A stretch of DNA of 20,000 nucleotides, from IMG/VR virus record IMGVR_UViG_3300008267_000055, one strand, 5' to 3'. Position 1 is the first letter of the stretch, and each line of letters begins with the position of its first letter. Under the pieces are notes generated by a model that worked only from the letters and a program-made list of their open reading frames with translations, was not told the origin of the DNA and made no database searches. Below, piece after piece: positions 5,527 through 20,000 of the stretch. This stretch comes from an uncultured virus (IMG/VR IMGVR_UViG_3300008267_000055) (taxonomy: Duplodnaviria > Heunggongvirae > Uroviricota > Caudoviricetes). The translations under genes and the position numbers were made by a program.

Positions 5527-6333
5527 ATGAAGCAACCAGACATGTTTCTGTGTCCGATCGACGATCTCATCCCCGATCCAACACAACCACGTCAGTTCTT
5601 CGACGAGGAAGAGCTGAAAGCCCTGACTGACAGCATTCGAGAGAAGGGCGTCCTCCTTCCTATTATTGTAAGGGAGCACCCTAGGAGCCCAGGTAAGCTT
5701 GAAATCGTTGCTGGAGAGCGCCGCTGGCGCGCTAGCAAGCGTGCAGCGCTAGATCACGTCCCAGTCATAAAGCGAGAGCTCTCAGACAAGGCTGCTTTCG
5801 AGATCGCGCTGATTGAAAATACCCAGCGGGCTAGCCTCAATCCTATTGAGGAGGCGCTCTCCTTCAAGCGGCTCTACGAAGAGCACAACATGCCGTACGT
5901 GGAGGTTGCCGAGGTCGTCGGTAAGTCTACGTCTTACGTTAGCAACACGCTTCGCTTGCTAAATCTTGAAGACGCCTACCAGCGCTTGGTTATTAATGGT
6001 GAGCTTAGCGCCAAGGGCGCTCGCGCGCTGCTAGCAGTTCCGAGCGGAACCTTGCGCGATGAGCTTGCGAACCTCATGCAGAAGGGTATGGGTCCTGCCG
6101 AAGCTGAGACCTGGGCTCGTGAGATGCAGCAACGGTCAACGGCTAGGGCAAGACCCTCTCGCCTGACTGGGCGAAAACCAAATCAACCACTTTTCGACCT
6201 CCTGCTCTCCAAGCTCAAAGAGAGGTATGGTACAGGGGTTGCCCTCGACACGAAAGCAAGGTCCGGATCTGTTTCTTTTGCTTTCAAGGATTTGCACGGT
6301 TTGTACTCTCTGTTTAAGGAGCTGACCAAGTGA
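5527..6333 (+). CDS. parB: ParB/Spo0J-family partition protein
   Basis: Contains QPRQFFDEEELKALTDSIREKGVLLPIIVR, the Arg patch VAGERRWRA, ALIENTQRASLNPIEEA and an HTH (VAEVVGKSTSYVSNTLRLL). Confidence 0.93.
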   Translation: MKQPDMFLCPIDDLIPDPTQPRQFFDEEELKALTDSIREKGVLLPIIVREHPRSPGKLEIVAGERRWRASKRAALDHVPVIKRELSDKAAFEIALIENTQRASLNPIEEALSFKRLYEEHNMPYVEVAEVVGKSTSYVSNTLRLLNLEDAYQRLVINGELSAKGARALLAVPSGTLRDELANLMQKGMGPAEAETWAREMQQRSTARARPSRLTGRKPNQPLFDLLLSKLKERYGTGVALDTKARSGSVSFAFKDLHGLYSLFKELTK

Positions 6334-7474: not shown

Positions 7475-8048
7475 CGACGTTGCAGCGATGCTGCCCGAGA
7501 TGAAGGAGCACCTCGCCAGCCTGCAGCCCTACGAGCGCGCCATCAGCCTGGACAACTGGGCTGCCATGGTCGGTCGCACGTATAGCCAGCTGCGCGTGGC
7601 GATGAAGTACCTCGATAAGACTTTCTTGAAGGCCTACACCGACCACCGGCGTGAGTACTATCGCTCGATGGAAGCTGAGCTCAAGGCGCTACCTGACTTC
7701 ACGATCAAGTACACACAGTCCGTGATGGACAAGTACGGGATCACACGCAAGGACGTGCAGCGGGTGAGGCTGCGCCTCAACCTTAAATGCGCTGCTAAGT
7801 ACTCTCGTGGAGCCGAGCGCGTGCACCCATTCCTGCAGCCTGGCTTGTCCCTGATGGACGTAGCCGAGGCTGCGGGGATGTACCTTTATCAGGTTCAGGG
7901 CTTGCTCAACCGTGGGCATCTGGACAAATACGCAGAGTTCGGCCACGCCAAGCGCCTGTGTCGGAACGGACGCAACCAGCGCGTCGTTGTGGTCGCTCGC
8001 CTCAAAGGAACGGAGAAGTCTCATGATCGAAGCAAGAGTCGTCGCTGA
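7449..8048 (+). CDS. Hypothetical, possibly HTH DNA-binding protein (paralog B)
   Basis: TTG start with AAGGAG 7 nt upstream; paralog of 6875-7474. Confidence 0.7.
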   Translation: MGAVKINHDDVAAMLPEMKEHLASLQPYERAISLDNWAAMVGRTYSQLRVAMKYLDKTFLKAYTDHRREYYRSMEAELKALPDFTIKYTQSVMDKYGITRKDVQRVRLRLNLKCAAKYSRGAERVHPFLQPGLSLMDVAEAAGMYLYQVQGLLNRGHLDKYAEFGHAKRLCRNGRNQRVVVVARLKGTEKSHDRSKSRR

Positions 8049-8871
8049 TAGCACATTCTATGGCCGCCGGCTGATCACGCTCTCGTGTGACTACCCGCGC
8101 TTCATCCATCCGCAGGTCATGACCTACGGCATGATCCGGAAGAGCACGTCGAGCAGCCGCGCCATCCCAGTGAAGCGGCAGCTCGAACTCTCCGCCGAGT
8201 ACGCCTACATCCCTGACGCGTTCTCTAAGAACAAGTCAGGGATGGCTGCCACGGAAGAGCTGAGCGACACGGACTACGCCCACGCCCGCGCCCTGGTGGA
8301 GTCTCACCTCAACTTCACGCGTAACATCGTGGAAAAGCTCGCAGACCTTGGCGTCCACAAGCAGCACGCCAACCGCTACCTCGAGCCCTACCTGATGACG
8401 CGCTGCATGATGACCGGCGCCTACGAAGCCTTCGAGCACCTCATCCAACAGCGCAAGCACGCCAACCTGCATGGTGAGGTGCAGCCTGAGATGTACGAGC
8501 TGGCCTGCAAGATGGACGAATCCATTAAAGCCTCCGAGTCTCAGATCCGTAAATTTCACGTCCCGTATTTTGATGGTGAAAAGCCTACGTACGAAGACGC
8601 CCTTTACGGCATCGCACGCGCTGCGCGGGACAGCTACATGCGCGAGGACGTGAGCTCTGAGTTTATGTCGCGTCTAGAGGCCCTGTGGAACGAAGGCCAC
8701 CTTGGGCCCTTTGAGCACGTAGCCTATTTTGAGTCCGTCGGATGCTACGCGGGTCCCTACATTATTCCGGCAGCTACGTCGGACGGGTCTGACGAAGTCA
8801 TGGCTGAGGACCTTTACGGATGGCGCACAGCTCGCCACATCGGACTTGAGAATCTGAAGGAGCTTTTCTGA
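8023..8871 (+). CDS. thyX: FAD-dependent thymidylate synthase-like protein (phage Thy1/ThyX family), divergent
   Basis: MIEARVVADS...YPRFIH...SSSRAIP, LGVHKQHANRYLEPY, VQPEM, HLGPFEHVA. GGAG lies upstream of ATG 8023. Confidence 0.8.
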   Translation: MIEARVVADSTFYGRRLITLSCDYPRFIHPQVMTYGMIRKSTSSSRAIPVKRQLELSAEYAYIPDAFSKNKSGMAATEELSDTDYAHARALVESHLNFTRNIVEKLADLGVHKQHANRYLEPYLMTRCMMTGAYEAFEHLIQQRKHANLHGEVQPEMYELACKMDESIKASESQIRKFHVPYFDGEKPTYEDALYGIARAARDSYMREDVSSEFMSRLEALWNEGHLGPFEHVAYFESVGCYAGPYIIPAATSDGSDEVMAEDLYGWRTARHIGLENLKELF

Positions 8872-10997: not shown

Positions 10998-11351
10998 GTG
11001 ATGAAGCAGCGCAATGTTTATAGCCGGGCTTGGGAACGCTACGAGGCTCTTCTGGAACACCTTGAGTGGTTCTTGGAGAACAATCCCGAGGTCGAGTGGA
11101 ACGCGATGGAGCTGGTTGACGTGCTCGGTACGGACTACAACACTTGGCGGGCCATGGTCCGTTGGTGCCGCGAGCACATCACCCACGTCCCTTGGTTTGG
11201 ATACAGACCGCCAAAAGGTACCGCCCGAAGCGGTACTTATTTTTACCGGTCAGTGGTGTCTCCGAGAGAGTTGGCGGGGCACTCTAAAGAGTGGCAAGCA
11301 GGGTTCCTAGCAGGAATCGAATACGCGAAAGCCGGAGTGGCGAAAAGGTAA
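10998..11351 (+). CDS. Hypothetical protein; 3' end overlaps the tRNA
   Basis: 117 aa with a GGAGG SD downstream of a good promoter. Confidence 0.65.
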   Translation: MMKQRNVYSRAWERYEALLEHLEWFLENNPEVEWNAMELVDVLGTDYNTWRAMVRWCREHITHVPWFGYRPPKGTARSGTYFYRSVVSPRELAGHSKEWQAGFLAGIEYAKAGVAKR

Positions 11352-11413
11352 CCGCAGGGGACTTAAAATCCCTCGCCCTGTGGGGCTTGCGGGTTCGAAT
11401 CCCGCCTCCGGCA
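11331..11413 (+). tRNA. tRNA-Leu(TAA), CCA not encoded
   Basis: Acceptor GCCGGAG/CTCCGGC plus discriminator A; anticodon arm GGGGA-CTTAAAA-TCCCT; long variable arm GCCC-TGTG-GGGC; T arm GCGGG-TTCGAAT-CCCGC. Confidence 0.93.
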
Positions 11414-11456
11414 CGAAGCGTTTACGCCCTGTAAGTAGGCGGGTTAGATCACCCGC

Positions 11457-12578
11457 ATGAATAAGTTCAGAGAAGCACTCACTGACGCTTATCTTGCCAA
11501 GCGCCCCTCGTACGCCAGGTGCCTAGGGCGTCTTGGCAAACGCGCGCCGGAACTCTTGAACGAGTTCGACCGGAACGCCTACGAGACGCTGCTCTCGGAC
11601 ATCCGTCGGTTGGACGGCCTCCTGAAAGAGGCGGCCGTCGACACGGAAAATTACGAGGTCGAGCGGTACACCGTCAACTCTTGGTCCAAGGGGAACTTCC
11701 AGGTCAAGGCGACCCTGCGCGCCAAGGGGAAGGTCTTCAAGATCCCAGATTACGAGCCGCCGCTTTTGGATTTATCCGTAGAGGCTGGTTCAGGGATGAC
11801 AGCGCTCTGCATCCCGGACATCCACTTTGGATTTTTGTGCGAAACCAAGCTCAACGGAGAAATACCGGAGCTGGAATGGAAGACCATCCACGACGAAAAA
11901 GCCGTGGCGGTCGTTTTAGAGGTCGCCCGGCGGTACCAGCCCGAGAAAATCGTGATCTTGGGCGATTTATTGGACCTGCCTGCGCTGTCGCGGTGGGACG
12001 TCGAGCCAAAACACCGCCACCAGACCCTCACGGCGGTAAAAGCGGCGCACGCTTTTCTGAAAAAGCTGCGGGTCGCGTGCCCGGGGTCGAAAATCTTTTT
12101 GCTGGAAGGCAACCACGAGCGGCGGTTGCGGGACTACTTGGCAAAAAATGCGCCGGAGCTGCTGGGGGCGACGAGCGTCCCGGAGCTTTTGGGCTTGGGG
12201 GTGTTGGAAATTACCTACGTCGGGCCCTACGGGACCCGGCTTCCCTTGGAAAAAGGGATTTTCGCCACCCACGGCCATTTAATCGGGCGAAAAGGCGGGG
12301 AGTCGGCCGCAAAAATGCTGGGGGAATACCACCTCTCGACGATTTTCGGGCACACCCACCGCTTGGAGTTGGCGTACCACACCCACTACGACGAGCAGAA
12401 TTTAGGGGGAACGGTATTTTCGATGGGGTGCGGAACTCTGGCCAAATTAGACGGGTCGGTGCCGGGGTCGCAGCACCCAAATTGGCAGCAAGGCTTTGGG
12501 GTGCTCTGGGGCGGGGCCCCTGCTATTTATTTAATCGAGAACGGCCGGTGTCGGATGGAAGGGATTTGGATATCCTGA
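11457..12578 (+). CDS. Calcineurin-like metallophosphoesterase
   Basis: All five motifs are present: PDIH, GDLLD, GNHE, HGH, GHTH. Confidence 0.9.
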   Translation: MNKFREALTDAYLAKRPSYARCLGRLGKRAPELLNEFDRNAYETLLSDIRRLDGLLKEAAVDTENYEVERYTVNSWSKGNFQVKATLRAKGKVFKIPDYEPPLLDLSVEAGSGMTALCIPDIHFGFLCETKLNGEIPELEWKTIHDEKAVAVVLEVARRYQPEKIVILGDLLDLPALSRWDVEPKHRHQTLTAVKAAHAFLKKLRVACPGSKIFLLEGNHERRLRDYLAKNAPELLGATSVPELLGLGVLEITYVGPYGTRLPLEKGIFATHGHLIGRKGGESAAKMLGEYHLSTIFGHTHRLELAYHTHYDEQNLGGTVFSMGCGTLAKLDGSVPGSQHPNWQQGFGVLWGGAPAIYLIENGRCRMEGIWIS

Positions 12579-12973: not shown

Positions 12974-13002
12974 TTGACATCCGACCCGGGGGGAGTCATA
13001 CT
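12974..13002 (+). promoter_or_regulatory. Strong sigma70-type (early) promoter
   Basis: TTGACA-17 nt-CATACT with a T-rich upstream element; TSS predicted at about 13009-13010. Confidence 0.7.
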
Positions 13003-13009
13003 GCATCTC

Positions 13010-13047
13010 GTCAGCAGGTTCTTTCACAAGTAAATAGCGGGTTGGGC
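13010..13047 (+). repeat. Left arm of a 38-nt long-range inverted repeat
   Basis: GTCAGCAGGTTCTTTCACAAGTAAATAGCGGGTTGGGC, complementary to 13998-14035. Confidence 0.92.
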
Positions 13048-13084
13048 ACCAAACAGGCACGTACTGTGCCGAAGGAAGGTGCTT

Positions 13085-13987
13085 ATGCGAGACGAGTTTG
13101 ACAGTGTGTTCTCCTTCGACGCTCCCGATGAGGGGGTGTTCGTGAGCTTCGTCCCGAAGATCAAGACAAAGCACGGGCGCATCCTCGCGTTGCGGTCGTG
13201 CTTCAGGGGGTCTCAGGGGGCGTCCAACTTCACCGACGCCGTGATGCTCGATCTGACCGATGAGGCCAGAGTCGCGTGGAAGGCGGTGACTGACGAGGCC
13301 TTCAGCGAGCGGGTCACGACCGCTTGCAAAGAGGCGGGCAGGCTCTGGTGGCGCTCTCTCTCGAAAGAGGAGCAGGACGCCACCAAGGCGGAGTGGGAGC
13401 AGGCGAAGCTCGAAGCTGCCGCGCGCAAAGCCGCCAAGGCTGAGCGCAAGGCCAACGACGGGCGAGTCGAAGGGGAGGTCGACGAGGGCAACCTCGGGGA
13501 CCAGATCGACAAGGTCCGGAACGCTGACGCTCCCAAGCCTGACAAGGCGCGGGAGCCCAAGACTCCGGAAGAGTGGCGAGAGCTGAAGAAAGAGGCTCTC
13601 GCGGAAGGTCGGGAGTGGGAGAGTGGGATTCAGCCTGACTTTGAAGAAGCGGCTGAGTTGCTCGCGGACAAGGCGCTGTCCAAGGCCTTCAAGCCTGGCG
13701 ACAAGCGCAAGACCGACATCCAGTTCAAGGCGGTCTGGGACGCCGTGAGGCACGGCTACCCGGTCTGGCACGACGACGATGTTGCAGACTTGTTCGGTCC
13801 CATCGGGCTGGCAAAGTGGAAGGCCGACAAGGCCGAACACGGAGAGAGCTCGAAGAATGACAAGGTTGTCCGCATGGCGCGCTTCAGAGTCGGGCGGGAG
13901 TTGGAGGTCATCCGCGAGGAGGCTGCCAAGAGAAGCAAGACCGAGTATGAGCGCATGATGGACGAGTTGGTCATCGACGCTAGCTGA
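13085..13987 (+). CDS. Hypothetical charged protein, first gene after the strong promoter
   Basis: About 300 aa, AAGGAAGG upstream, GC3-rich codons; GTG at 13079 is an alternative start. Confidence 0.8.
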   Translation: MRDEFDSVFSFDAPDEGVFVSFVPKIKTKHGRILALRSCFRGSQGASNFTDAVMLDLTDEARVAWKAVTDEAFSERVTTACKEAGRLWWRSLSKEEQDATKAEWEQAKLEAAARKAAKAERKANDGRVEGEVDEGNLGDQIDKVRNADAPKPDKAREPKTPEEWRELKKEALAEGREWESGIQPDFEEAAELLADKALSKAFKPGDKRKTDIQFKAVWDAVRHGYPVWHDDDVADLFGPIGLAKWKADKAEHGESSKNDKVVRMARFRVGRELEVIREEAAKRSKTEYERMMDELVIDAS

Positions 13988-13997
13988 GTAGAATGAA

Positions 13998-14035
13998 GCC
14001 CAACCCGCTGTTTACTTGTGAAGGAACCTGCCGAC
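13998..14035 (+). repeat. Right arm of the 38-nt long-range inverted repeat
   Basis: GCCCAACCCGCTGTTTACTTGTGAAGGAACCTGCCGAC; 35 Watson-Crick pairs, 2 G-U and 1 A-C with the left arm. Confidence 0.92.
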
Positions 14036-14086
14036 ACCGCTCGCACGGTGCGAGCGGTTTGGCGAGAAACGAGAGGAGACGAGACC

Positions 14087-14305
14087 ATGACGAACGTGTT
14101 TATCAGCATCCGCGACGGAGAGAAGCTTGACAACCTGCTGGCAGAGCAAGGCCTGCAGAAGTGGAACGTGGAGGCGGTCGACGCCTCCACGTGGTCGGGC
14201 GGTCCGATCCTCGGGCGCCTCCCCGAGTCAGGGCTGCTCGTGACCGGCAAGCTGGAGACTCCGTGGCACGAGGAGTTCTGCGGCCTGCAGATCCTCGCAG
14301 TCTGA
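14087..14305 (+). CDS. Hypothetical protein, TWSGGP/TPWHEEF family (paralog of 17260-17484)
   Basis: AGGAG SD, 72 aa, clear paralog elsewhere in the window. Confidence 0.85.
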   Translation: MTNVFISIRDGEKLDNLLAEQGLQKWNVEAVDASTWSGGPILGRLPESGLLVTGKLETPWHEEFCGLQILAV

Positions 14306-14309
14306 GGCA

Positions 14310-14377
14310 GGCCGAAACCTAGGGGCGACGCGAGTCGCCCCTACGGTCCGCGAGTAGGTGCTCGCGCTGATGAGGCC
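14310..14377 (+). ncRNA. Hammerhead ribozyme, type II; predicted cleavage after C14348
   Basis: GGCC-GAAA-CC-TAGGGGCGAC[GCGA]GTCGCCCCTA-C-GG-TC^-CGCGAG[TAGGTG]CTCGCG-CTGATGA-GGCC. The full catalytic core and stems I-III are present. Confidence 0.88.
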
Positions 14378-14390
14378 AAAGGAGACGAAC

Positions 14391-14474
14391 ATGAGAGACG
14401 CAGGCGAGCTGGTCGTGGGTTGGGTGGTCGGTGGGATCTTGTGGTTCGGTCCGTGGTGGTACTTCCTGAGCTGA
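14391..14474 (+). CDS. Small hydrophobic peptide (27 aa)
   Basis: AAGGAG SD; MRDAGELVVGWVVGGILWFGPWWYFLS*; not in the ORF track. Confidence 0.6.
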   Translation: MRDAGELVVGWVVGGILWFGPWWYFLS

Positions 14475-14580
14475 AGCCACCACGTACAACGCGAGCGCGA
14501 CGCAAGCTGATCGTCGCGCTCGCTCGCTCGCTCGCTCGCACGTTGCGCGCTGAGCCTCAACCCTTGACTCGGAGAACAGC

Positions 14581-14793
14581 ATGAAAGAGACGTTCACCTT
14601 CCTCGCGCTCGCGTTCGCGCTCGCGTTCGCGATCACCCTTGCGGACGTCGCGCTCGCGCATCGCATGCGCGAGATCCCGATGCTGCTCGCGTGCGAGGTG
14701 CTGCTAGGCATCTCGCTCGCTGGTCGCGCCATCGCTTCCGATCGCGAGCGTCGCGCGGAAGCGAGAGAGCGCGAGCGCGAGAGCTCTCGCTGA
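14581..14793 (+). CDS. Small putative membrane protein
   Basis: GGAG SD; hydrophobic segments and a charged tail. It lies in low-complexity DNA, so the call is uncertain. Confidence 0.5.
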   Translation: MKETFTFLALAFALAFAITLADVALAHRMREIPMLLACEVLLGISLAGRAIASDRERRAEARERERESSR

Positions 14794-14800
14794 AGCAAGA

Positions 14801-14836
14801 GAACGCAGTAGAACGCGCGCGCGTTCTACTGCGTTC
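14801..14836. repeat. Perfect 36-bp palindrome with an alternating CG core
   Basis: GAACGCAGTAGAAC-GCGCGCGC-GTTCTACTGCGTTC. A further half-site ACGCAGTAGAA(CG)8 lies at 14890-14916. Confidence 0.9.
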
Positions 14837-15685
14837 GTTCGTTCGTTCGTCCGTTCACTCGTTCGCCAGCTTGGCAGCTTGCCAGCTCGACGCAGTAGAA
14901 CGCGCGCGCGCGCGCGCTCGCATGCGTGCGTGCGTGCGTGCGTGTGCGCGCGTCAACGAGCTTCGACCTCGTTCGCGTGCGCGCAAGAACCTTGCAAGAT
15001 CAAGACCTTGCAGCACAAGCGCGTCGCGTTCGGAACGCCGTCCAGGGCGGACTACGACGTGACGTAGGGGGTCTTGCCCAGGGGGCGGTTGCTAACAGTC
15101 GCGATCCTCGCGACATTCTGAAATACGAAGATCTCGAAAATCGCGCGCGGCGCGCTTCGCGCGCCAACCGAGCGCGCCGGGCCCAGGGGGCCCGGCGGCC
15201 GCGCACTGACGCTCAGTGGTACCAGGAGTACCGCTGGGTGCGCGGCGCGACCGCTCGCTGATTCCTGCCCGCTGCTCTGTGGTAGTTCGTTGGCTAGCTT
15301 TCTAAACTGTGCCTATGAACAAAGTGAATTACGAACAATTCCAATGCGCGCGCACCGCGAGGTCGCGCTGCTCTCCAACTACGAAGGGAGGGTGGGGCCC
15401 CGTAAGCTCACGTTAGATAGAGCTATCTATTGCGGTGAGTTTATTTCTTGAGTGTTGCTAGTAGGAAGAGATGCGTTGCTTCGCGTACTGTCGTAGGTGT
15501 TCGCTGCAGAATCGTAAGTGGGGGTCCAGACATCCTGAAACGCGCCTATTTCCACAGCGGGTACCAGGTCCCCCTCGCCCCCCGCCCTAAGGGAGATATT
15601 GCATGAGTTGTGGAACATGATGAAAATGCAACAATTCAAAAATACCCGCTGAAGGAGGGTTTACAAAATAACTATCAGGTAGACA

Positions 15686-15768
15686 GGGGGGGATGGGTCG
15701 AGGAGGGGGTGGTTGGGGTGGCCTGGGGTAGGGGGAGAGGGTAGCTTGGTGTGTGTGTGTGTGTGTGT
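15686..15768 (+). repeat. G-tract cluster followed by a (GT)10 microsatellite
   Basis: Seven G-runs of 3 nt or more in 15686-15741; (GT)10 at 15749-15768. Confidence 0.85.
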
Positions 15769-15801
15769 CCTTCAATGTATTCTCTAGAAAGGAGTAGGAA
15801 G

Positions 15802-15990
15802 ATGGCAGTCATGGGAAATACGTACAAGGTTGAACTGAAGAATGGCCGTGGATCGGTCATTGGTATGCGGCCGAATGGGATCGAGTTCGAGTGGCTGGTG
15901 ATTCCGAAGGAGCTGGTTCAGAAGTTCATGAACGGAGAGATGGACGAGAAGGAAGTGATTCAGAGAACGCGTTGGCCTGAGTGGGTGTGA
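15802..15990 (+). CDS. Small hypothetical protein
   Basis: AAAGGAGTAGGAAG-ATG leader shared with later genes; 62 aa. Confidence 0.75.
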   Translation: MAVMGNTYKVELKNGRGSVIGMRPNGIEFEWLVIPKELVQKFMNGEMDEKEVIQRTRWPEWV

Positions 15991-16080
15991 GGAAGAAATA
16001 ATAAGTCGAGCTCATCACACGGTGTGGTGGGCTCGGCTTATGTGTCGGGTTCGAGAAGACAGCCTGAAAGGAGTAGGAAG

Positions 16081-16434
16081 ATGAAGGTCGGAAAGGTTGA
16101 GTGGGAAATGCTGGATGGAATGGTTCGGGAGGAGATGGAGGAGAGCAAGTGGGCTGAGAACGAGAAGAGTTACGACCTGGCTTTGGAGTTGTTCAAGAAC
16201 ATTATCTGGGCTCGGGAAATGATCGAGCACATGGAGAACAAGGTTCAGGGTAGGGAGAAGATCGAGCTGAAGCAGGCGAAGCTTGCGTACCAGCTGGTGG
16301 ATATCGGGCTTCAGAGAAGTCAGATCACGAAGGCGGAGGAGATGAGCTTCCAAGGAACTCTGAAGATCATCGGGATTCAGGGTGACATGGTTCGTCGGGG
16401 GGTTTGGGAAAATCCTCCGGTGATCTTGATCTAA
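16081..16434 (+). CDS. Hypothetical protein
   Basis: CTGAAAGGAGTAGGAAG-ATG leader; 117 aa. Confidence 0.8.
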   Translation: MKVGKVEWEMLDGMVREEMEESKWAENEKSYDLALELFKNIIWAREMIEHMENKVQGREKIELKQAKLAYQLVDIGLQRSQITKAEEMSFQGTLKIIGIQGDMVRRGVWENPPVILI

Positions 16435-16512
16435 ATAATAAAGAAATAATCAATCGGGTCCATCACGCGGTGTGGTGGGCTCGATTGTGTCTGCGTAGTT
16501 GAGGAGGTTGGT

Positions 16513-16779
16513 ATGTTTCATCAGTGGCTGGTGGTCGAGGCGATCAAGAACATTCTGTCGGTGTGCGGGCAGGACATGGTCCACACGGCCGTGGTTGAGG
16601 AGTGGGACGGTACGCAGGATATCCTCAAGGTCGAGGGCCTTGGGAACGTTGACTGCAGCGTTGCCGAGGAGGTGGTGCTGGACATCGTGTACATGGATGG
16701 GCAGCGCCAGACGATGAGGGCGGCAGAGCTCAGAACGCTGGTGAAGGGTTGGCTGGGAGCCGACATCGAAGTGTTCTAA
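16513..16779 (+). CDS. Hypothetical protein (VEEWDG motif)
   Basis: GAGGAGG SD; 88 aa. Confidence 0.75.
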   Translation: MFHQWLVVEAIKNILSVCGQDMVHTAVVEEWDGTQDILKVEGLGNVDCSVAEEVVLDIVYMDGQRQTMRAAELRTLVKGWLGADIEVF

Positions 16780-16864
16780 AAAATAATCAGCCGGGTCCAT
16801 CACGCGGTGTGGTGGGCTCGGCTTTTTTTATTAGGGGCTAGAGACAGACTGAAAGGAGTAGGAA

Positions 16865-17173
16865 ATGAAGATCGAAATCGAAATCATCGAGCGTTGCGAA
16901 GAAGGAAAATACGATCAGATCCTCGGGAGGATTGGAGATATCCTCTGGGAGGGTGAGCTTGATGCCGAGGAGGCGAAGCGCATCAGCTACGGGTCGACTG
17001 CTGGGAAGTTCAGAATCATCGGGGATGGCATCGTCAAGGATTACGACGACGAGTTCGATTTTGGTGAGGAGAACGAGGACGATTACGAAGAAGCGGTGGC
17101 GGTTGAGGAGTGGGACGGCTGCCAGTGGGTGTGCGTCGTAACGAACAAGTGGATCACCGACGTGGTGAAGTGA
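16865..17173 (+). CDS. Acidic hypothetical protein (VEEWDG motif)
   Basis: CTGAAAGGAGTAGGAA-ATG leader; 102 aa, D/E-rich. Confidence 0.8.
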   Translation: MKIEIEIIERCEEGKYDQILGRIGDILWEGELDAEEAKRISYGSTAGKFRIIGDGIVKDYDDEFDFGEENEDDYEEAVAVEEWDGCQWVCVVTNKWITDVVK

Positions 17174-17259
17174 AATAAGGAATAATCAGTCGGGCTCATC
17201 ACGGTGATGGGCTCGGCTATTTATCGGGTCAGAAAAAACAATCTGAAAGGAGTAGGGAA

Positions 17260-17484
17260 ATGAGCAAGGAAGTTTTCATCAGCATCAAGGACGGAGAGGC
17301 CCTGGACGAGCTCTGCAAGGAGTTCAACCTGGAGAAGCACCAGGTGGTGGTTTGTAATTATGAGACATGGTCGGGTGGACCGTACCTGAAGAGACTGAAG
17401 GACTGTGACCTTCTGGTGGCTGGTGGGTTGAAGACTCCATGGCACGAGGAATTCTACCGTCTGGAGATTTTGAACTGGGACTGA
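17260..17484 (+). CDS. Hypothetical protein, TWSGGP/TPWHEEF family
   Basis: Shared leader; paralog of 14087-14305. Confidence 0.85.
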   Translation: MSKEVFISIKDGEALDELCKEFNLEKHQVVVCNYETWSGGPYLKRLKDCDLLVAGGLKTPWHEEFYRLEILNWD

Positions 17485-17563
17485 GAGCAACCTAGAAAAA
17501 TAAATCGCCCGGCTTCGAAAGGGGTCGGGCGGTTTGGTTTTATAAATAGTCAGGAGAGACAGT

Positions 17564-17815
17564 ATGAAAGAAGGTGTTTTCGAGATCTTTCTGGCGTTCG
17601 TGATTTTTGGAATTTGTCTGGGTGTACCAGCAATGGTCGGGAGCTGGGCTGAAGGAGAAAGAAGAAGAGAAGAACTGACAGAGCAGAAAAATAGTCTGGA
17701 AGAAGAACTGAAAGTTCTGAGCCAGAAGGTGGACGGAAGAAGAGTGGGTCCTTTGCTTAAGATCCTTGATCTGGAAAATGAGATTAATCGACTGGAAGCG
17801 GAGATGAGAAGATGA
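17564..17815 (+). CDS. Small protein with N-terminal TM segment and coiled coil
   Basis: AGGAG SD; hydrophobic residues about 5-26, then an E/K/R-rich region. Confidence 0.75.
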   Translation: MKEGVFEIFLAFVIFGICLGVPAMVGSWAEGERRREELTEQKNSLEEELKVLSQKVDGRRVGPLLKILDLENEINRLEAEMRR

Positions 17816-17904
17816 CTGGCATGTTGCTTGGGTACGTTGGATTTATTTTTGTTATGCCGATGGGTTTGGCTTTTGTCTTTAATCGTAAGGGAGGTGTGAG
17901 ATGA
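17812..17904 (+). CDS. Small hydrophobic peptide (30 aa)
   Basis: ATGA overlaps at both ends; MTGMLLGYVGFIFVMPMGLAFVFNRKGGVR*. Confidence 0.6.
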   Translation: MTGMLLGYVGFIFVMPMGLAFVFNRKGGVR

Positions 17905-18113
17905 GAATGCCGTTGATGTTTGTGAAAGAGAATAAGTGCCCTGAGTGTGGGGAAACCGTCAGGACCCATGTGGATGACGATGGGTTTGGACAGTACTGTG
18001 GAAATAAGAAGGAGTGTGGGTGGAACCAGGGAAATGCCTATGGAGAGAGGTGGCTGAGAAAGAACAATAAGGAAAGGATGGTCTGGGAAAGCATGTGGAA
18101 GAGGGGAGATTAA
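17901..18113 (+). CDS. Small Zn-ribbon-like protein
   Basis: GGAGG SD; CPEC...CGNKKEC. Confidence 0.75.
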   Translation: MRMPLMFVKENKCPECGETVRTHVDDDGFGQYCGNKKECGWNQGNAYGERWLRKNNKERMVWESMWKRGD

Positions 18114-18131
18114 ATAATAAGGAGAAACAAT

Positions 18132-18269
18132 CTGAAAAGTCTTAAAGAAAAAATAGAAGAGCTGAGGAGGGCAGCTGAGAAAATCCCTCAGGAAGAAAGG
18201 GAGCGTCGGGCAAGAGAAGAGGCCCGGCTGGTAATAAATGATCAGGAACAGAAGAGGAGGCTGAGATGA
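18132..18269 (+). CDS. Putative CTG-initiated coiled-coil peptide (45 aa)
   Basis: AAGGAG-7 nt-CTG; LKSLKEKIEELRRAAEKIPQEERERRAREEARLVINDQEQKRRLR*; the stop overlaps the next ATG. Confidence 0.45.
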   Translation: MKSLKEKIEELRRAAEKIPQEERERRAREEARLVINDQEQKRRLR

Positions 18270-18541
18270 GGAACTGTGACTGCTGTTACGACTGGGAAAC
18301 AGACATGGTTATTGATGACCGAGAGGCTTGGGAGATTGAGGAGGTTGAGATGCATAAGGAAGAGGAAAAGATCTGGGCACGTGCGAAAGCAGAGGGTCTG
18401 ACTTTTAATCAGGCAAAGGAAGTGATGGATGAGGAGCGCACAAAGGAACTGGTGGATGCCTATGAAAAAGAGATAGCGGAAATCATGAGGAAGGAAAACG
18501 TGAGCCGAGAGAGAGCGGAAGACATCTACATCCCGTTCTGA
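18266..18541 (+). CDS. Acidic hypothetical protein
   Basis: GAGGAGG SD; N-terminal CDCC. Confidence 0.75.
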   Translation: MRNCDCCYDWETDMVIDDREAWEIEEVEMHKEEEKIWARAKAEGLTFNQAKEVMDEERTKELVDAYEKEIAEIMRKENVSRERAEDIYIPF

Positions 18542-18631
18542 TGGGTAAGGAATAAATGGTCTGGCTCAGAAATGGGTCAGGCCATTTATTTCGTCTAGAA
18601 AAAACAATCTGAAAAAATAAAGGAGGAAAAT

Positions 18632-18961
18632 ATGGACGATCTGGATATTTGCGGGTGCTCGACATGTGATTTTTGCCGGGCTGGTGTGGATGACGATGAC
18701 GGTACGGAATATGTGGAGGGAGAGATGGAAAGCCAGGAGGATATGATGGGCCGGATTACGGAAGGAGATATCAGGGAGTGGGAGAAGAAGGAGAACGAGG
18801 ATATTGAGAAGGAGGCCAGAAAAGAATTGGAGAAGAAGGAGAACGAGGATATTGAGAAGGAGGCCAGAAAAGAATTCGTCAGGGACAATGGGCGGGAGCC
18901 GAGTGTGGAAGAGCTGGCGAAGAAGGGGTTGGAGGTTTGGTACCGTCGCTGGGTTGTCTGA
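18632..18961 (+). CDS. Acidic hypothetical protein with a 16-aa tandem duplication
   Basis: AAGGAGG SD; CGCSTCDFC; 48-bp direct repeat at 18781-18828 and 18829-18876. Confidence 0.78.
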   Translation: MDDLDICGCSTCDFCRAGVDDDDGTEYVEGEMESQEDMMGRITEGDIREWEKKENEDIEKEARKELEKKENEDIEKEARKEFVRDNGREPSVEELAKKGLEVWYRRWVV

Positions 18962-18996
18962 AAATAAACCTTGAGGGAATAAATAAGGAGGTAGGT

Positions 18997-19179
18997 ATGT
19001 GGGATTTTGATTTTGAGTTCGAGGTCCAGGCTAGCGACGCTTGGAGAAGAAGAAGAATCGAGCGGAAGCTGGAGAAGGTGGAGCGGGTGATCCGGGACGA
19101 GTTCGAGCTGGGACGCGAGGAGGCTTGCCCGGTCTTGATGAGAAGAGCCCTTGAGCTGCGGGTTCAACTGGAAGGCTGA
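18997..19179 (+). CDS. Small hypothetical protein
   Basis: TAAGGAGGT SD before ATG 18997; 60 aa. Confidence 0.72.
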   Translation: MWDFDFEFEVQASDAWRRRRIERKLEKVERVIRDEFELGREEACPVLMRRALELRVQLEG

Positions 19180-19242
19180 GAAATACCGAGTAGGGCAGGT
19201 AGGCCCGAAAGGGTCTGCCTGTTCTTTCTATCAGGAGGAAAT

Positions 19243-19428
19243 ATGTTCGTGGTTGAGAAGCTGGGTGAGGATGTGTGGGTGGCCGTGGCTTGGGAAGAGG
19301 GTGGTGAGATTTTCCGGATGGTAGGGAAAAGAGAAGACGTCAACGAAATGAGCTGTGTGGTTCGGAACGAGGCTGAGTTCGCAACCAAGGAAGAGGCCGA
19401 AGAGGCTCTGAAGGAAATGGAGGTCTGA
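19243..19428 (+). CDS. Small acidic hypothetical protein
   Basis: AGGAGG SD; 61 aa. Confidence 0.72.
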   Translation: MFVVEKLGEDVWVAVAWEEGGEIFRMVGKREDVNEMSCVVRNEAEFATKEEAEEALKEMEV

Positions 19429-19429
19429 G

Positions 19430-19651
19430 ATGGTGACCGTGGCTTTTATCGAAAATACCGAGGCGACCGTGAAGGTCATGCGAGACGACAACGAATGGTT
19501 CTTCCTGAAGGACACTGGAGGATTTATCGTCCTCAAGGATCAGGGAAAGAAAATCATCTGCTCGAGGTGGGATGACTGCCATCGTCAGGTCGAAATCACG
19601 AACGCTCAGATGATGTGGGCTAAGAAGTGGGTCAGAAGGCTCGGCGCCTGA
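19430..19651 (+). CDS. Small hypothetical protein
   Basis: GGAGGT SD; 73 aa. Confidence 0.72.
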   Translation: MVTVAFIENTEATVKVMRDDNEWFFLKDTGGFIVLKDQGKKIICSRWDDCHRQVEITNAQMMWAKKWVRRLGA

Positions 19652-19694
19652 TTTATTATTTCTTCCCCCAGACTCCCTGAAAATTAATTAAATC

Positions 19695-19722
19695 GCCCCA
19701 GAAAATCATCTGGGGCTTTTTT
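19695..19722 (+). terminator. Intrinsic terminator
   Basis: GCCCCAGA-AAATCA-TCTGGGGC followed by TTTTTT. Confidence 0.7.
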
Positions 19723-19759
19723 CTACCCTGAACCAGGCTCCAAGGGGCTCGGAGACACC

Positions 19760-19873
19760 ATGACATCTACATTAATTGCGTATCTGGGCTTTTTCGGCGG
19801 GACAGTTGGCTTGGCGAGTGGGCTCCATGGATTGGTTCGTTCTTTTGGTAAGGGTGGTTTTGGGAAAGTTTAA
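19760..19873 (+). CDS. Small hydrophobic peptide (37 aa)
   Basis: GGAG SD; MTSTLIAYLGFFGGTVGLASGLHGLVRSFGKGGFGKV*; N-terminus resembles the 17812 peptide. Confidence 0.55.
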   Translation: MTSTLIAYLGFFGGTVGLASGLHGLVRSFGKGGFGKV

Positions 19874-19912
19874 GGTAAGGGTTTTTGATTTTTTGACTTA
19901 CGGAGGTTTGAG

Positions 19913-20000
19913 ATGATCAGGACGCTTTCTTTCTTTTTTGCTCTGCTTTTCCTTGGTCTGTTTCTTGGGATCTTGGTGGACGCTTCTCACAACCCTTACC
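19913..20000 (+). CDS. Membrane protein N-terminus, cut by the window edge
   Basis: GGAGGT SD; MIRTLSFFFALLFLGLFLGILVDASHNPY... Confidence 0.55.
   Translation, partial: MIRTLSFFFALLFLGLFLGILVDASHNPY

Follow-up and report, generated by a model that had tools for sequence, protein, structure and literature searches.

Positions 14310-14377 (+) of the window, the 20,000-nt stretch of DNA from an uncultured tailed phage that was analyzed here as a whole, very probably encode a genuine type II hammerhead self-cleaving ribozyme. The ribozyme belongs to a large phage-borne subgroup in which stem II is formed by a GGCC strand pairing with a second GGCC strand. The motif and its fold are improbable by chance, the site is a member of a family of RNAs with covarying helices, and it has been retained in the one relative that is known. 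From the anatomy we infer that the RNA would cleave itself after C14348, and the site is a likely RNA processing site inside an operon of small genes, with a precise end expected at 14348/14349.

Structure of the ribozyme

Read directly from the sequence, 14310-14377 contains all of the hammerhead core nucleotides and three helices in the type II order, which runs from the stem II 5′ strand through GAA, the stem III hairpin, the cleavage site, the stem I hairpin and CUGAUGA to the stem II 3′ strand (Table 1). In this permutation, found in both the sequence and the fold, stem II is the open helix and stems I and III each end in a loop. Stem I is 6 bp long, stem II 4 bp, and stem III 13 bp with one bulge. 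The first pair of stem III is made by A15.1 (14317) and U16.1 (14347) and is followed by 12 more, with the GNRA loop GCGA at 14330-14333. In stem I, 14349-14354 are paired with 14361-14366 (6 pairs) and the loop is UAGGUG (14355-14360).

The pairs adjacent to the core, G14374-C14313, C14349-G14366 and A14317-U14347, are all canonical. Perreault et al. 2011 (PMC3088659) accept hammerheads that have no mispair at 10.1-11.1, 1.1-2.1 or A15.1-U16.1, and the window motif has none at any of these places. The minimum-energy fold of 14306-14382 is exactly the hammerhead, with an energy of −41.3 kcal/mol (z = −3.27); an equally good fold was obtained with 2 of 200 shuffles. A sequence-only reading of this DNA had described a type II hammerhead with an intact core, and the core, the helices and the permutation are all present in the sequence and the fold.

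The position of hammerhead cleavage is set by the hammerhead numbering, and the cut 3′ of C17 leaves a 2′,3′-cyclic phosphate and a 5′-OH. The site predicted from the GUC triplet is the one that had been claimed, after C14348. As had also been proposed, it would follow from this anatomy that cleavage leaves a GNRA-capped hairpin on the upstream RNA and a hairpin at the 5′-OH of the downstream RNA.

Table 1. Features of the window discussed in the text, in order of position.
Feature	Position	Strand	Basis	Remarks
Portal protein	563-2053	−	Pfam/PHROG match	
ParB	5527-6333	+	Pfam/PHROG match	
ThyX-like thymidylate synthase	7912-8871	+	Pfam/PHROG match	
tRNA-Leu (UAA)	11331-11414			
Metallophosphoesterase	11457-12578	+	Pfam/PHROG match	
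Promoter-like site	12974-13002	+	Sigma-70 consensus TTGACA-17-CATACT, 10/12 positions	Consensus match only
302-aa frame	13079-13987	+		No Pfam/PHROG match
72-aa gene	14087-14305	+		Stop TGA 14303-14305; no Pfam/PHROG match
GGCCUGC	14282-14288	+		Inside the 72-aa gene; predicted to pair with 14307-14313 and compete with stem II
Stem II 5′ strand GGCC	14310-14313	+	Sequence, minimum-energy fold	C11.1 = C14313; A14309 just 5′
Core G12 A13 A14	14314-14316	+	Sequence, Rfam alignment	Same in contig L128
Stem III hairpin	14317-14347 (31 nt)	+	Fold	13 pairs, bulged C14344
GUC triplet	14346-14348	+	Sequence	Predicted cleavage 3′ of C14348
Stem I hairpin	14349-14366 (18 nt)	+	Fold	Same in contig L128
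Core C3 U4 G5 A6 U7 G8 A9 = CUGAUGA	14367-14373	+	Sequence	
Stem II 3′ strand GGCC	14374-14377	+	Sequence, fold	G10.1 = G14374; followed by A14378
Shine-Dalgarno GGAG	14381-14384 (region from 14380)	+	Sequence	
27-codon frame	14391-14474	+		ATG 14391-14393, stop 14472-14474; no Pfam/PHROG match
70-aa frame	14581-14793	+		No Pfam/PHROG match

A covarying family of hammerheads in viral contigs

Viral contigs were searched with the pattern GGCCGAAAC, gap, GTC, gap, CTGATGAGGCC, in which 23 letters are fixed and the stems are left free. The pattern matches at least 127 loci, with 118 distinct sequences among the matches listed, where about 2 matches would be expected by chance according to a rough estimate that assumes a collection of ~6e10 bases. 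Among the matches listed, several viral contigs carry 2 to 5 copies. Contiguous pairing of at least 6 pairs in stem I is found in 107 of the 118 listed members, and of at least 4 pairs in stem III in 105 of the 118. We aligned 22 of the 24 listed members that are 54 nt long, leaving out the 2 whose stems partition differently, and found that 352 of 352 pair cells are standard and that both partners vary in 10 of 16 pairs. The covariation score of this alignment is 0.643, compared with 0.164 in shuffles, and was reached by none of 500 shuffles; when the pairing partners are slid by one to three columns, pairing falls to 27-41%. The hammerheads with a GGCC stem II constitute a genuine family of structured RNAs.

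The stem II and core letters are fixed by the search pattern and are not independent evidence, and the independent evidence for membership therefore lies in traits that the pattern leaves free and that the family and the window have in common. An A at position −1, outside the pattern, is found in 116 of the 118 listed members and agrees with A14309, and a U after a 6-bp stem I, likewise outside the pattern, is found in 103 of 107 and agrees with U14355. The A at +1 after stem II (88/118 listed members) and the G at the end of loop I (80/107) are matched by A14378 and G14360. Loop I is 6 nt long in the window, a length shared by 7 of the 107 listed members, and 5 nt long in 95 of them. The traits of the subgroup, i.e. 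the GGCC/GGCC stem II, the A at −1, the 6-bp stem I followed by U and the slot between stop and start, are all present in the window. A third of the subgroup also has a NUCAG 3′ tail, which shows covariation with N7 of the core and is able to fold back onto that core; the window copy is without the tail. We claim no novelty for the GGCC subgroup, for its position rule or for the tail, and the subgroup is set beside the published type II hammerheads by description only.

The same 23-letter pattern was run against one genome per species for 185,579 prokaryote species and gave 58 matches. Of these, 30 are well formed and all 30 have an A at −1, and 28 are ill formed with an A at −1 in 9. The window site, with both stems and the A in place, is unlike the chance letter matches in prokaryote genomes.

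Chance and model scores

Both strands of the window were searched with a type II descriptor that demands the core, at least 4 pairs in each of stems III and I and at least 2 in stem II, with one 1-nt bulge permitted, and the single match in the 20 kb is 14310-14377. Any minimal match was found in 25 of 3000 dinucleotide shuffles of the window, and stems as long as those observed in 0 of 3000. A bulge-free first version of the descriptor, which matched 1 of 1000 shuffles, missed the real site and was replaced by the bulge-tolerant one. It is conceivable that a GC-rich, hairpin-rich spacer has spelled the core by accident, given that the local region is 64.5% G+C with many inverted repeats and that chance letter matches do occur, as in the 28 of 58 cellular-genome matches without good stems. 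We consider such an accident extremely improbable, however, in view of the shuffles, none of which is as good, of the stems and the A at −1 that set the window apart from the ill-formed genome matches, and of the retention of the motif in the contig L128.

The Rfam type II model RF02276 gives 20.8 bits at the site, below its gathering score of 37, with an E-value of 0.039 on 201 nt and of 3.9 on the whole window, and a default Rfam scan of the window does not report it. We also ran RF02276 on 20 loci, comprising 19 listed family loci and L128, and obtained 19 type II matches at E ≤ 1; the L128 copy is not reported at that threshold. The Rfam cut-off excludes most of the covarying GGCC subgroup too, because only 2 of the 19 type II matches reach 37 bits. 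With a model built from the 22 aligned family members, 14310-14377 scores 45.7 bits (E = 4.6e-9) and the next best site in the window 11.8 bits; since the pattern that gathered the seed had been derived from the window motif, agreement at 23 of the 54 model positions is built in. By the Rfam scan and by our own model, there is one hammerhead only in the 20-kb window.

Genomic placement

The window is part of a contig of about 77 kb, and from 5527 onward its long frames are on the + strand. The motif starts 4 nt after the stop codon of the 72-aa gene and ends 2 nt before the Shine-Dalgarno region, and the next ATG is found 14 nt after the motif. This placement between a stop codon and a Shine-Dalgarno sequence had been pointed out from the sequence and is confirmed; it is typical of the GGCC family. 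We counted placements in the 115 listed members that have enough flank, using random positions of the same loci as the control. Members that begin at most 12 nt from, or overlap, a stop codon closing a frame of at least 40 codons number 98 of the 115 (random positions, 266/2300), and for 79 of the 115 a start codon with a Shine-Dalgarno-like sequence is found no more than 45 nt away (random positions, 384/2300). For 53 of the 115 listed members, the last base of the stop codon is position −1 or the codon shares the first G of the motif. The placement of the motif between genes is real but generic.

A distant DNA search of 13000-15300 against deposited phage records gave no match, and viral contigs searched by protein gave no relatives of the 72-aa, 302-aa or metallophosphoesterase proteins. 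For each of the two upstream proteins, further protein searches yielded one relative, with identities of 75% and 76%; the one homolog of the 72-aa protein, P0004 (76% identity), is syntenic in L128. Contigs were available from four sequencing runs, two of them without cover over 14303-14491, and contigs cannot show RNA ends. A 251-letter contig that runs across the site comes from a run that is labelled RNA-Seq but is probably DNA, and none of these contigs has a bearing on cleavage.

Retention in a metagenomic relative

The metagenome contig L128 (2134 nt) was found through a 73-aa protein and not through the RNA, and its hammerhead occupies the equivalent slot: the stop codon immediately precedes it, and the Shine-Dalgarno sequence and ATG seen in the window follow. 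The model from 22 family members gives this hammerhead 32.7 bits. In a MAFFT alignment of the window with L128, 60 of 68 columns are identical in the ribozyme and 165 of 219 in the adjacent gene, the 72-aa gene, in which 26 of 53 substitutions fall at third codon positions. The two sequences agree throughout stem I, loop I and stem II and at all invariant positions of the core. The differences in stem III are a compensatory change of A14328-U14335 to G-C, a change of C14326-G14337 to U.G that leaves it paired, a change of U14342 to G that turns A14321-U14342 into an A.G mismatch, and a change of the bulged C14344 to U. Elsewhere, U14371 at N7, the one free position of the core, is C in L128, there is one extra U between A9 and stem II, and the letters 14306-14309 are absent. 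Because only one relative exists, covariation at the level of the locus rests on one compensatory pair, and we take the conservation at this locus as no more than suggestive. The indels of 4, 1 and 3 letters that separate the window from L128 within about 75 nt speak against a protein-coding frame through the motif, whichever strand is considered.

The viral contigs were scanned a second time with one extra letter permitted after A9, which gave at least 124 loci and, among the matches listed, 117 distinct sequences. The extra letter is U in 106 of these 117, and the stems are well formed in 99 of the 117. The form found in L128, with C at N7 and the extra U, is the commonest and accounts for 49 of the 99 well-formed listed variants. 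The extra U in L128 is not a defect, because the extra-U form is common among viral loci. The type III hammerhead of chrysanthemum chlorotic mottle viroid has an extra nucleotide, an A, between A9 and G10.1, which is the place of the extra nucleotide, mostly U, in L128 and the viral loci of the second scan; the window copy is without one. A further contig, L311, was returned by a search with a stem I pattern; it is unrelated, its hammerhead-like motif (30.5 bits) is mispaired as C.A at 10.1-11.1, and it was not taken as a homolog.

L128 also keeps the Shine-Dalgarno sequence and the 27-codon frame from its ATG through codon 13, before the contig ends. The frame is hydrophobic and has a good Shine-Dalgarno sequence, and the sequence-only reading had taken it for the gene of a 27-aa micropeptide. 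The comparison does not bear this out: the 9 substitutions over the 13 comparable codons are distributed 3:3:3 over the codon positions, without a coding signature.

Competing structures and tertiary contacts

Loop I had been proposed to hold the ribozyme in an off-state by pairing with the 5′ strand of stem III. The complementarity of ACCUA (14317-14321) and UAGGU (14355-14359) on which that proposal was based stands, and both segments are unchanged in L128. The pairing itself is not supported: its predicted probability is about 0 in the four contexts folded, and such complementarity is not a family trait, since complementarity of 5 letters between loop I and the stem III 5′ strand is found in 0 of 107 listed members, and of 4 letters in 7, compared with 3.5 expected from permuted pairs.

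In the folding predictions a better competitor than the loop I pairing is the hairpin formed by 14282-14288 and 14307-14313, which would take the 5′ strand of stem II. Folding in three contexts gives this hairpin probabilities of 0.15, 0.72 and 0.19 and stem II probabilities of 0.74, 0.21 and 0.04, respectively, with lower values for stem II in the longer contexts. This hairpin is absent from L128, and it is therefore not conserved. A helix between 14300-14303 and 14383-14386, which extends stem II in one fold and would sequester the Shine-Dalgarno sequence, has no counterpart in L128 and was discarded. Stem III was likewise rejected as an intrinsic terminator; it is without a U run, and no + strand terminator-like site was found in 14300-15300.

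According to Perreault et al. 2011 (PMC3088659), most, though not all, of the published type II hammerheads make their tertiary contact through a pseudoknot of loop I with the 3′ tail. This pseudoknot is impossible in the window, where at most 2 pairs can form, and pseudoknots of at least 4 pairs are found in 10 of the 107 listed members of the subgroup, with no excess over permuted controls. Because there is no such excess, the subgroup must use another tertiary contact or none.

Activity and control

The motif could be a hammerhead by descent that is inactive or barely active, with the hairpins serving only as RNA structure, for example in the protection of a 3′ end. A loss of this kind would be in keeping with the impossible pseudoknot, with the 6-nt loop I shared by few listed members, with a competing hairpin that reaches a probability of 0.72 against a short stem II, with the Rfam score below the cut-off and with the stem III mismatch in L128. 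Against it, the invariant core is the same in the window and L128 despite 25% divergence of the neighbouring gene, and the only change in the core is at N7, the free position. Moreover, the whole subgroup is without the pseudoknot and yet covaries strongly, and the competing hairpin is not found in L128, so that we judge inactivity to be quite unlikely.

We hold it to be very unlikely that the ribozyme is regulated, whether gated by the pairing of loop I with stem III or by ribosomes on the upstream gene, which would melt the hairpin at 14282-14288 and cover stem II while terminating at 14303-14305. The 5-nt complement between loop I and stem III does exist, but its predicted pairing probability of about 0 and its absence as a family trait speak against the first version. 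For the ribosome version, the stop codon lies 4 nt before stem II, it lies at −1 or over the first G in nearly half of the listed members (53/115), and the competing hairpin is within coding sequence; however, that hairpin is not conserved in L128, and tightly packed genes may be all that has brought the stop codon so near. A wider proposal, which we consider unlikely, is that the pseudoknot-free type II subgroup of phages acts as translation-aware punctuation and that the window copy is a tail-less form gated by the hairpin in the upstream coding region. Since the stop codon overlaps the start of the motif or is only a few nucleotides away from it, stem II would be hidden under a ribosome that is terminating there, and the cut could be made only once that ribosome has left. 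The near-invariant A at −1 would then often be the last base of the stop codon, and the NUCAG tail, where present, could lock the cut or release the products.

A model for transcript processing

In the reading that we prefer, an active hammerhead, the ribozyme would be transcribed within a + strand operon beginning near 13000. Stems III and I would form as local hairpins, stem II would close the three-way junction once 14374-14377 has been made, and the RNA would then cut itself after C14348. The upstream RNA, with the 302-aa and 72-aa genes, would end in a 2′,3′-cyclic phosphate just 3′ of (within five nucleotides) the 13-bp GNRA-capped hairpin. The downstream RNA would begin with the stem I hairpin of 6 bp, to which the 5′-OH is directly attached, at a distance of 25 nt from the Shine-Dalgarno sequence of the following frame. 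In bacterial RNA decay, a 3′-terminal helix slows 3′ exonucleases, and a 5′-terminal hairpin and the absence of a 5′ monophosphate slow the 5′-end-dependent attack of RNase E. With a 3′ helix on one product, and a 5′ hairpin and no 5′ monophosphate on the other, the two RNA halves could gain separate lifetimes, and the cut may uncouple their stability or their translation.

RiboJ, a type III hammerhead, is an engineered ribozyme insulator that is used immediately upstream of a ribosome-binding site. As in RiboJ, the upstream RNA is predicted to be cut off in the window and a hairpin to be left at the new 5′ end shortly before a Shine-Dalgarno sequence; unlike RiboJ, the window element occurs naturally, and its place is between genes and not behind a promoter.

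The sequence-only reading had gone further and combined the ribozyme with a duplex and hairpin arrays into an RNA-level system that cuts one transcript into single-gene units. Such units do not follow, because there is only one hammerhead in 20 kb, and nothing ties the ribozyme to the downstream palindromes and hairpins. The operon-cutting function as such repeats a published hypothesis, that of Perreault et al. 2011 (PMC3088659), in which phage hammerheads are proposed to cut long transcripts into gene-length mRNAs. A 2019 review (PMC6765202) still lists this role as unproven.

Relation to known hammerheads

The window hammerhead is an ordinary member of a large and already known group of phage hammerheads. 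With the type II hammerheads of bacteria, prophages and metagenomes (RF02276), as described in PMC3088659, it shares the core, the permutation, the context of phage genes and the proposed role in cutting transcripts. It differs from these published examples in that it has no pseudoknot, a 4-bp GGCC stem II, a 13-bp stem III and a score below the Rfam cut-off.

The same source (PMC3088659) describes tandem prophage hammerheads that flank genes in Agrobacterium tumefaciens (ardA), Clostridium scindens and Azorhizobium caulinodans and that cleave in vitro, those of Agrobacterium also in vivo after cloning. Like them, the window hammerhead occupies an intergenic slot in a multi-gene phage RNA; unlike them, it is the only one in 20 kb and not part of an array, and consequently no gene of the window would have a cut on either side.

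Three type II hammerheads of Desulfovibrio vulgaris, which adjoin hypothetical and phage-like genes, were found by cyPhyRNA-seq to cleave in vivo and during transcription, according to PMC8782182. Their 3′ fragment is 39 nt long and their 5′ fragment 29-32 nt, where the corresponding lengths within the window motif are 29 and 39 nt, a comparison made by description.

Hammerheads between phage genes have been known since 2011, and what the window site adds in general is small. For annotators, the Rfam type II cut-off misses most of the covarying GGCC-stem-II subgroup in viral contigs, a subgroup that is without an excess of the textbook pseudoknot and that has a very regular position between a stop codon and a ribosome-binding site.

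A 3′ tail complementary to the catalytic core

In the GGCC-stem-II family, the type II hammerheads of viral contigs retrieved with a pattern built from the window's core and stem II, 82 of 243 distinct sequences among the matches listed have a 3′ tail that starts with NUCAG. This count covers family members at viral-contig loci L001-L252, the window not being among them, and the tail is absent from both the window's ribozyme and the copy in L128, the metagenome contig that is the only relative found. Among the NUCAG-tailed members listed, the N of the tail is Watson-Crick complementary to N7, the free position of the CUGANGA core, in 80/82 sequences: C7 is accompanied by G in every case (40/40) and U7 by A in 40/42. 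This complementarity points to a conserved hairpin, CUGAN-loop-NUCAG, in which the tail would fold back onto the catalytic core.

Forms with and without one extra nucleotide between A9, the last core letter before the 3′ strand of stem II, and stem II itself are about equally common among the viral-contig matches listed, and in 106 of the 117 distinct sequences that carry the extra nucleotide it is a U. The window's ribozyme and that of L128 differ in this way, the copy in L128 having the added nucleotide.

Hammerhead arrays and a related motif

Several viral contigs carry further type II hammerheads near a pattern match, so that arrays are common in the GGCC-stem-II family, whereas the window has none.

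Hammerhead forms and additional copies on viral contigs
Feature	Location	Basis
Type II hammerhead, outside exact search pattern	L006 666-730	near pattern match on same contig
Type II hammerhead, outside exact search pattern	L013 651-714	near pattern match on same contig
Type II hammerhead, outside exact search pattern	L009 1124-1195	near pattern match on same contig
Type II hammerheads, outside exact search pattern	L002 526-594, 1240-1305	near pattern match on same contig
Extra-nucleotide form	L129-L252; L128 2011-2079	pattern search (L129-L252); match to upstream protein (L128)

An unrelated viral contig holds a hammerhead-like motif (L311 400-468, − strand) whose stem I letters are identical to those of the window and whose long stem III is interrupted after the third pair. 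As in the family, it follows a stop codon and precedes a Shine-Dalgarno sequence with ATG; its 10.1-11.1 pair, the stem II pair touching the core, is a C.A mismatch.

Flanking features of the window

Upstream of the ribozyme, the 302-aa and 72-aa genes are separated by a spacer that contains a GC-rich hairpin followed by UUUG (14036-14062). This hairpin may act as a weak terminator or may stabilise the RNA. Its counterpart in L128 (about 1736-1762) shows a compensatory change from U-A to G-C, and the hairpin was not among the sites listed by a terminator scan of the window.

Downstream, within about 500 nt lacking a convincing gene, the stretch 14801-14950 contains a perfect palindrome of 36 nt (14801-14836) and runs of CGTT, GC and GCGT repeats; a 21-nt word at 14803-14823 recurs at 14890-14910 and, in inverted orientation, at 14814-14834. 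This region may serve as an origin or be bound by protein; no connection between these sequences and the ribozyme was found. Across 15300-20000, G+C is 0.47-0.53, down from about 0.64, and GC skew climbs to 0.27-0.51. This composition sets the stretch apart from the window's left part and suggests either another module or a difference in how the DNA is transcribed or replicated.
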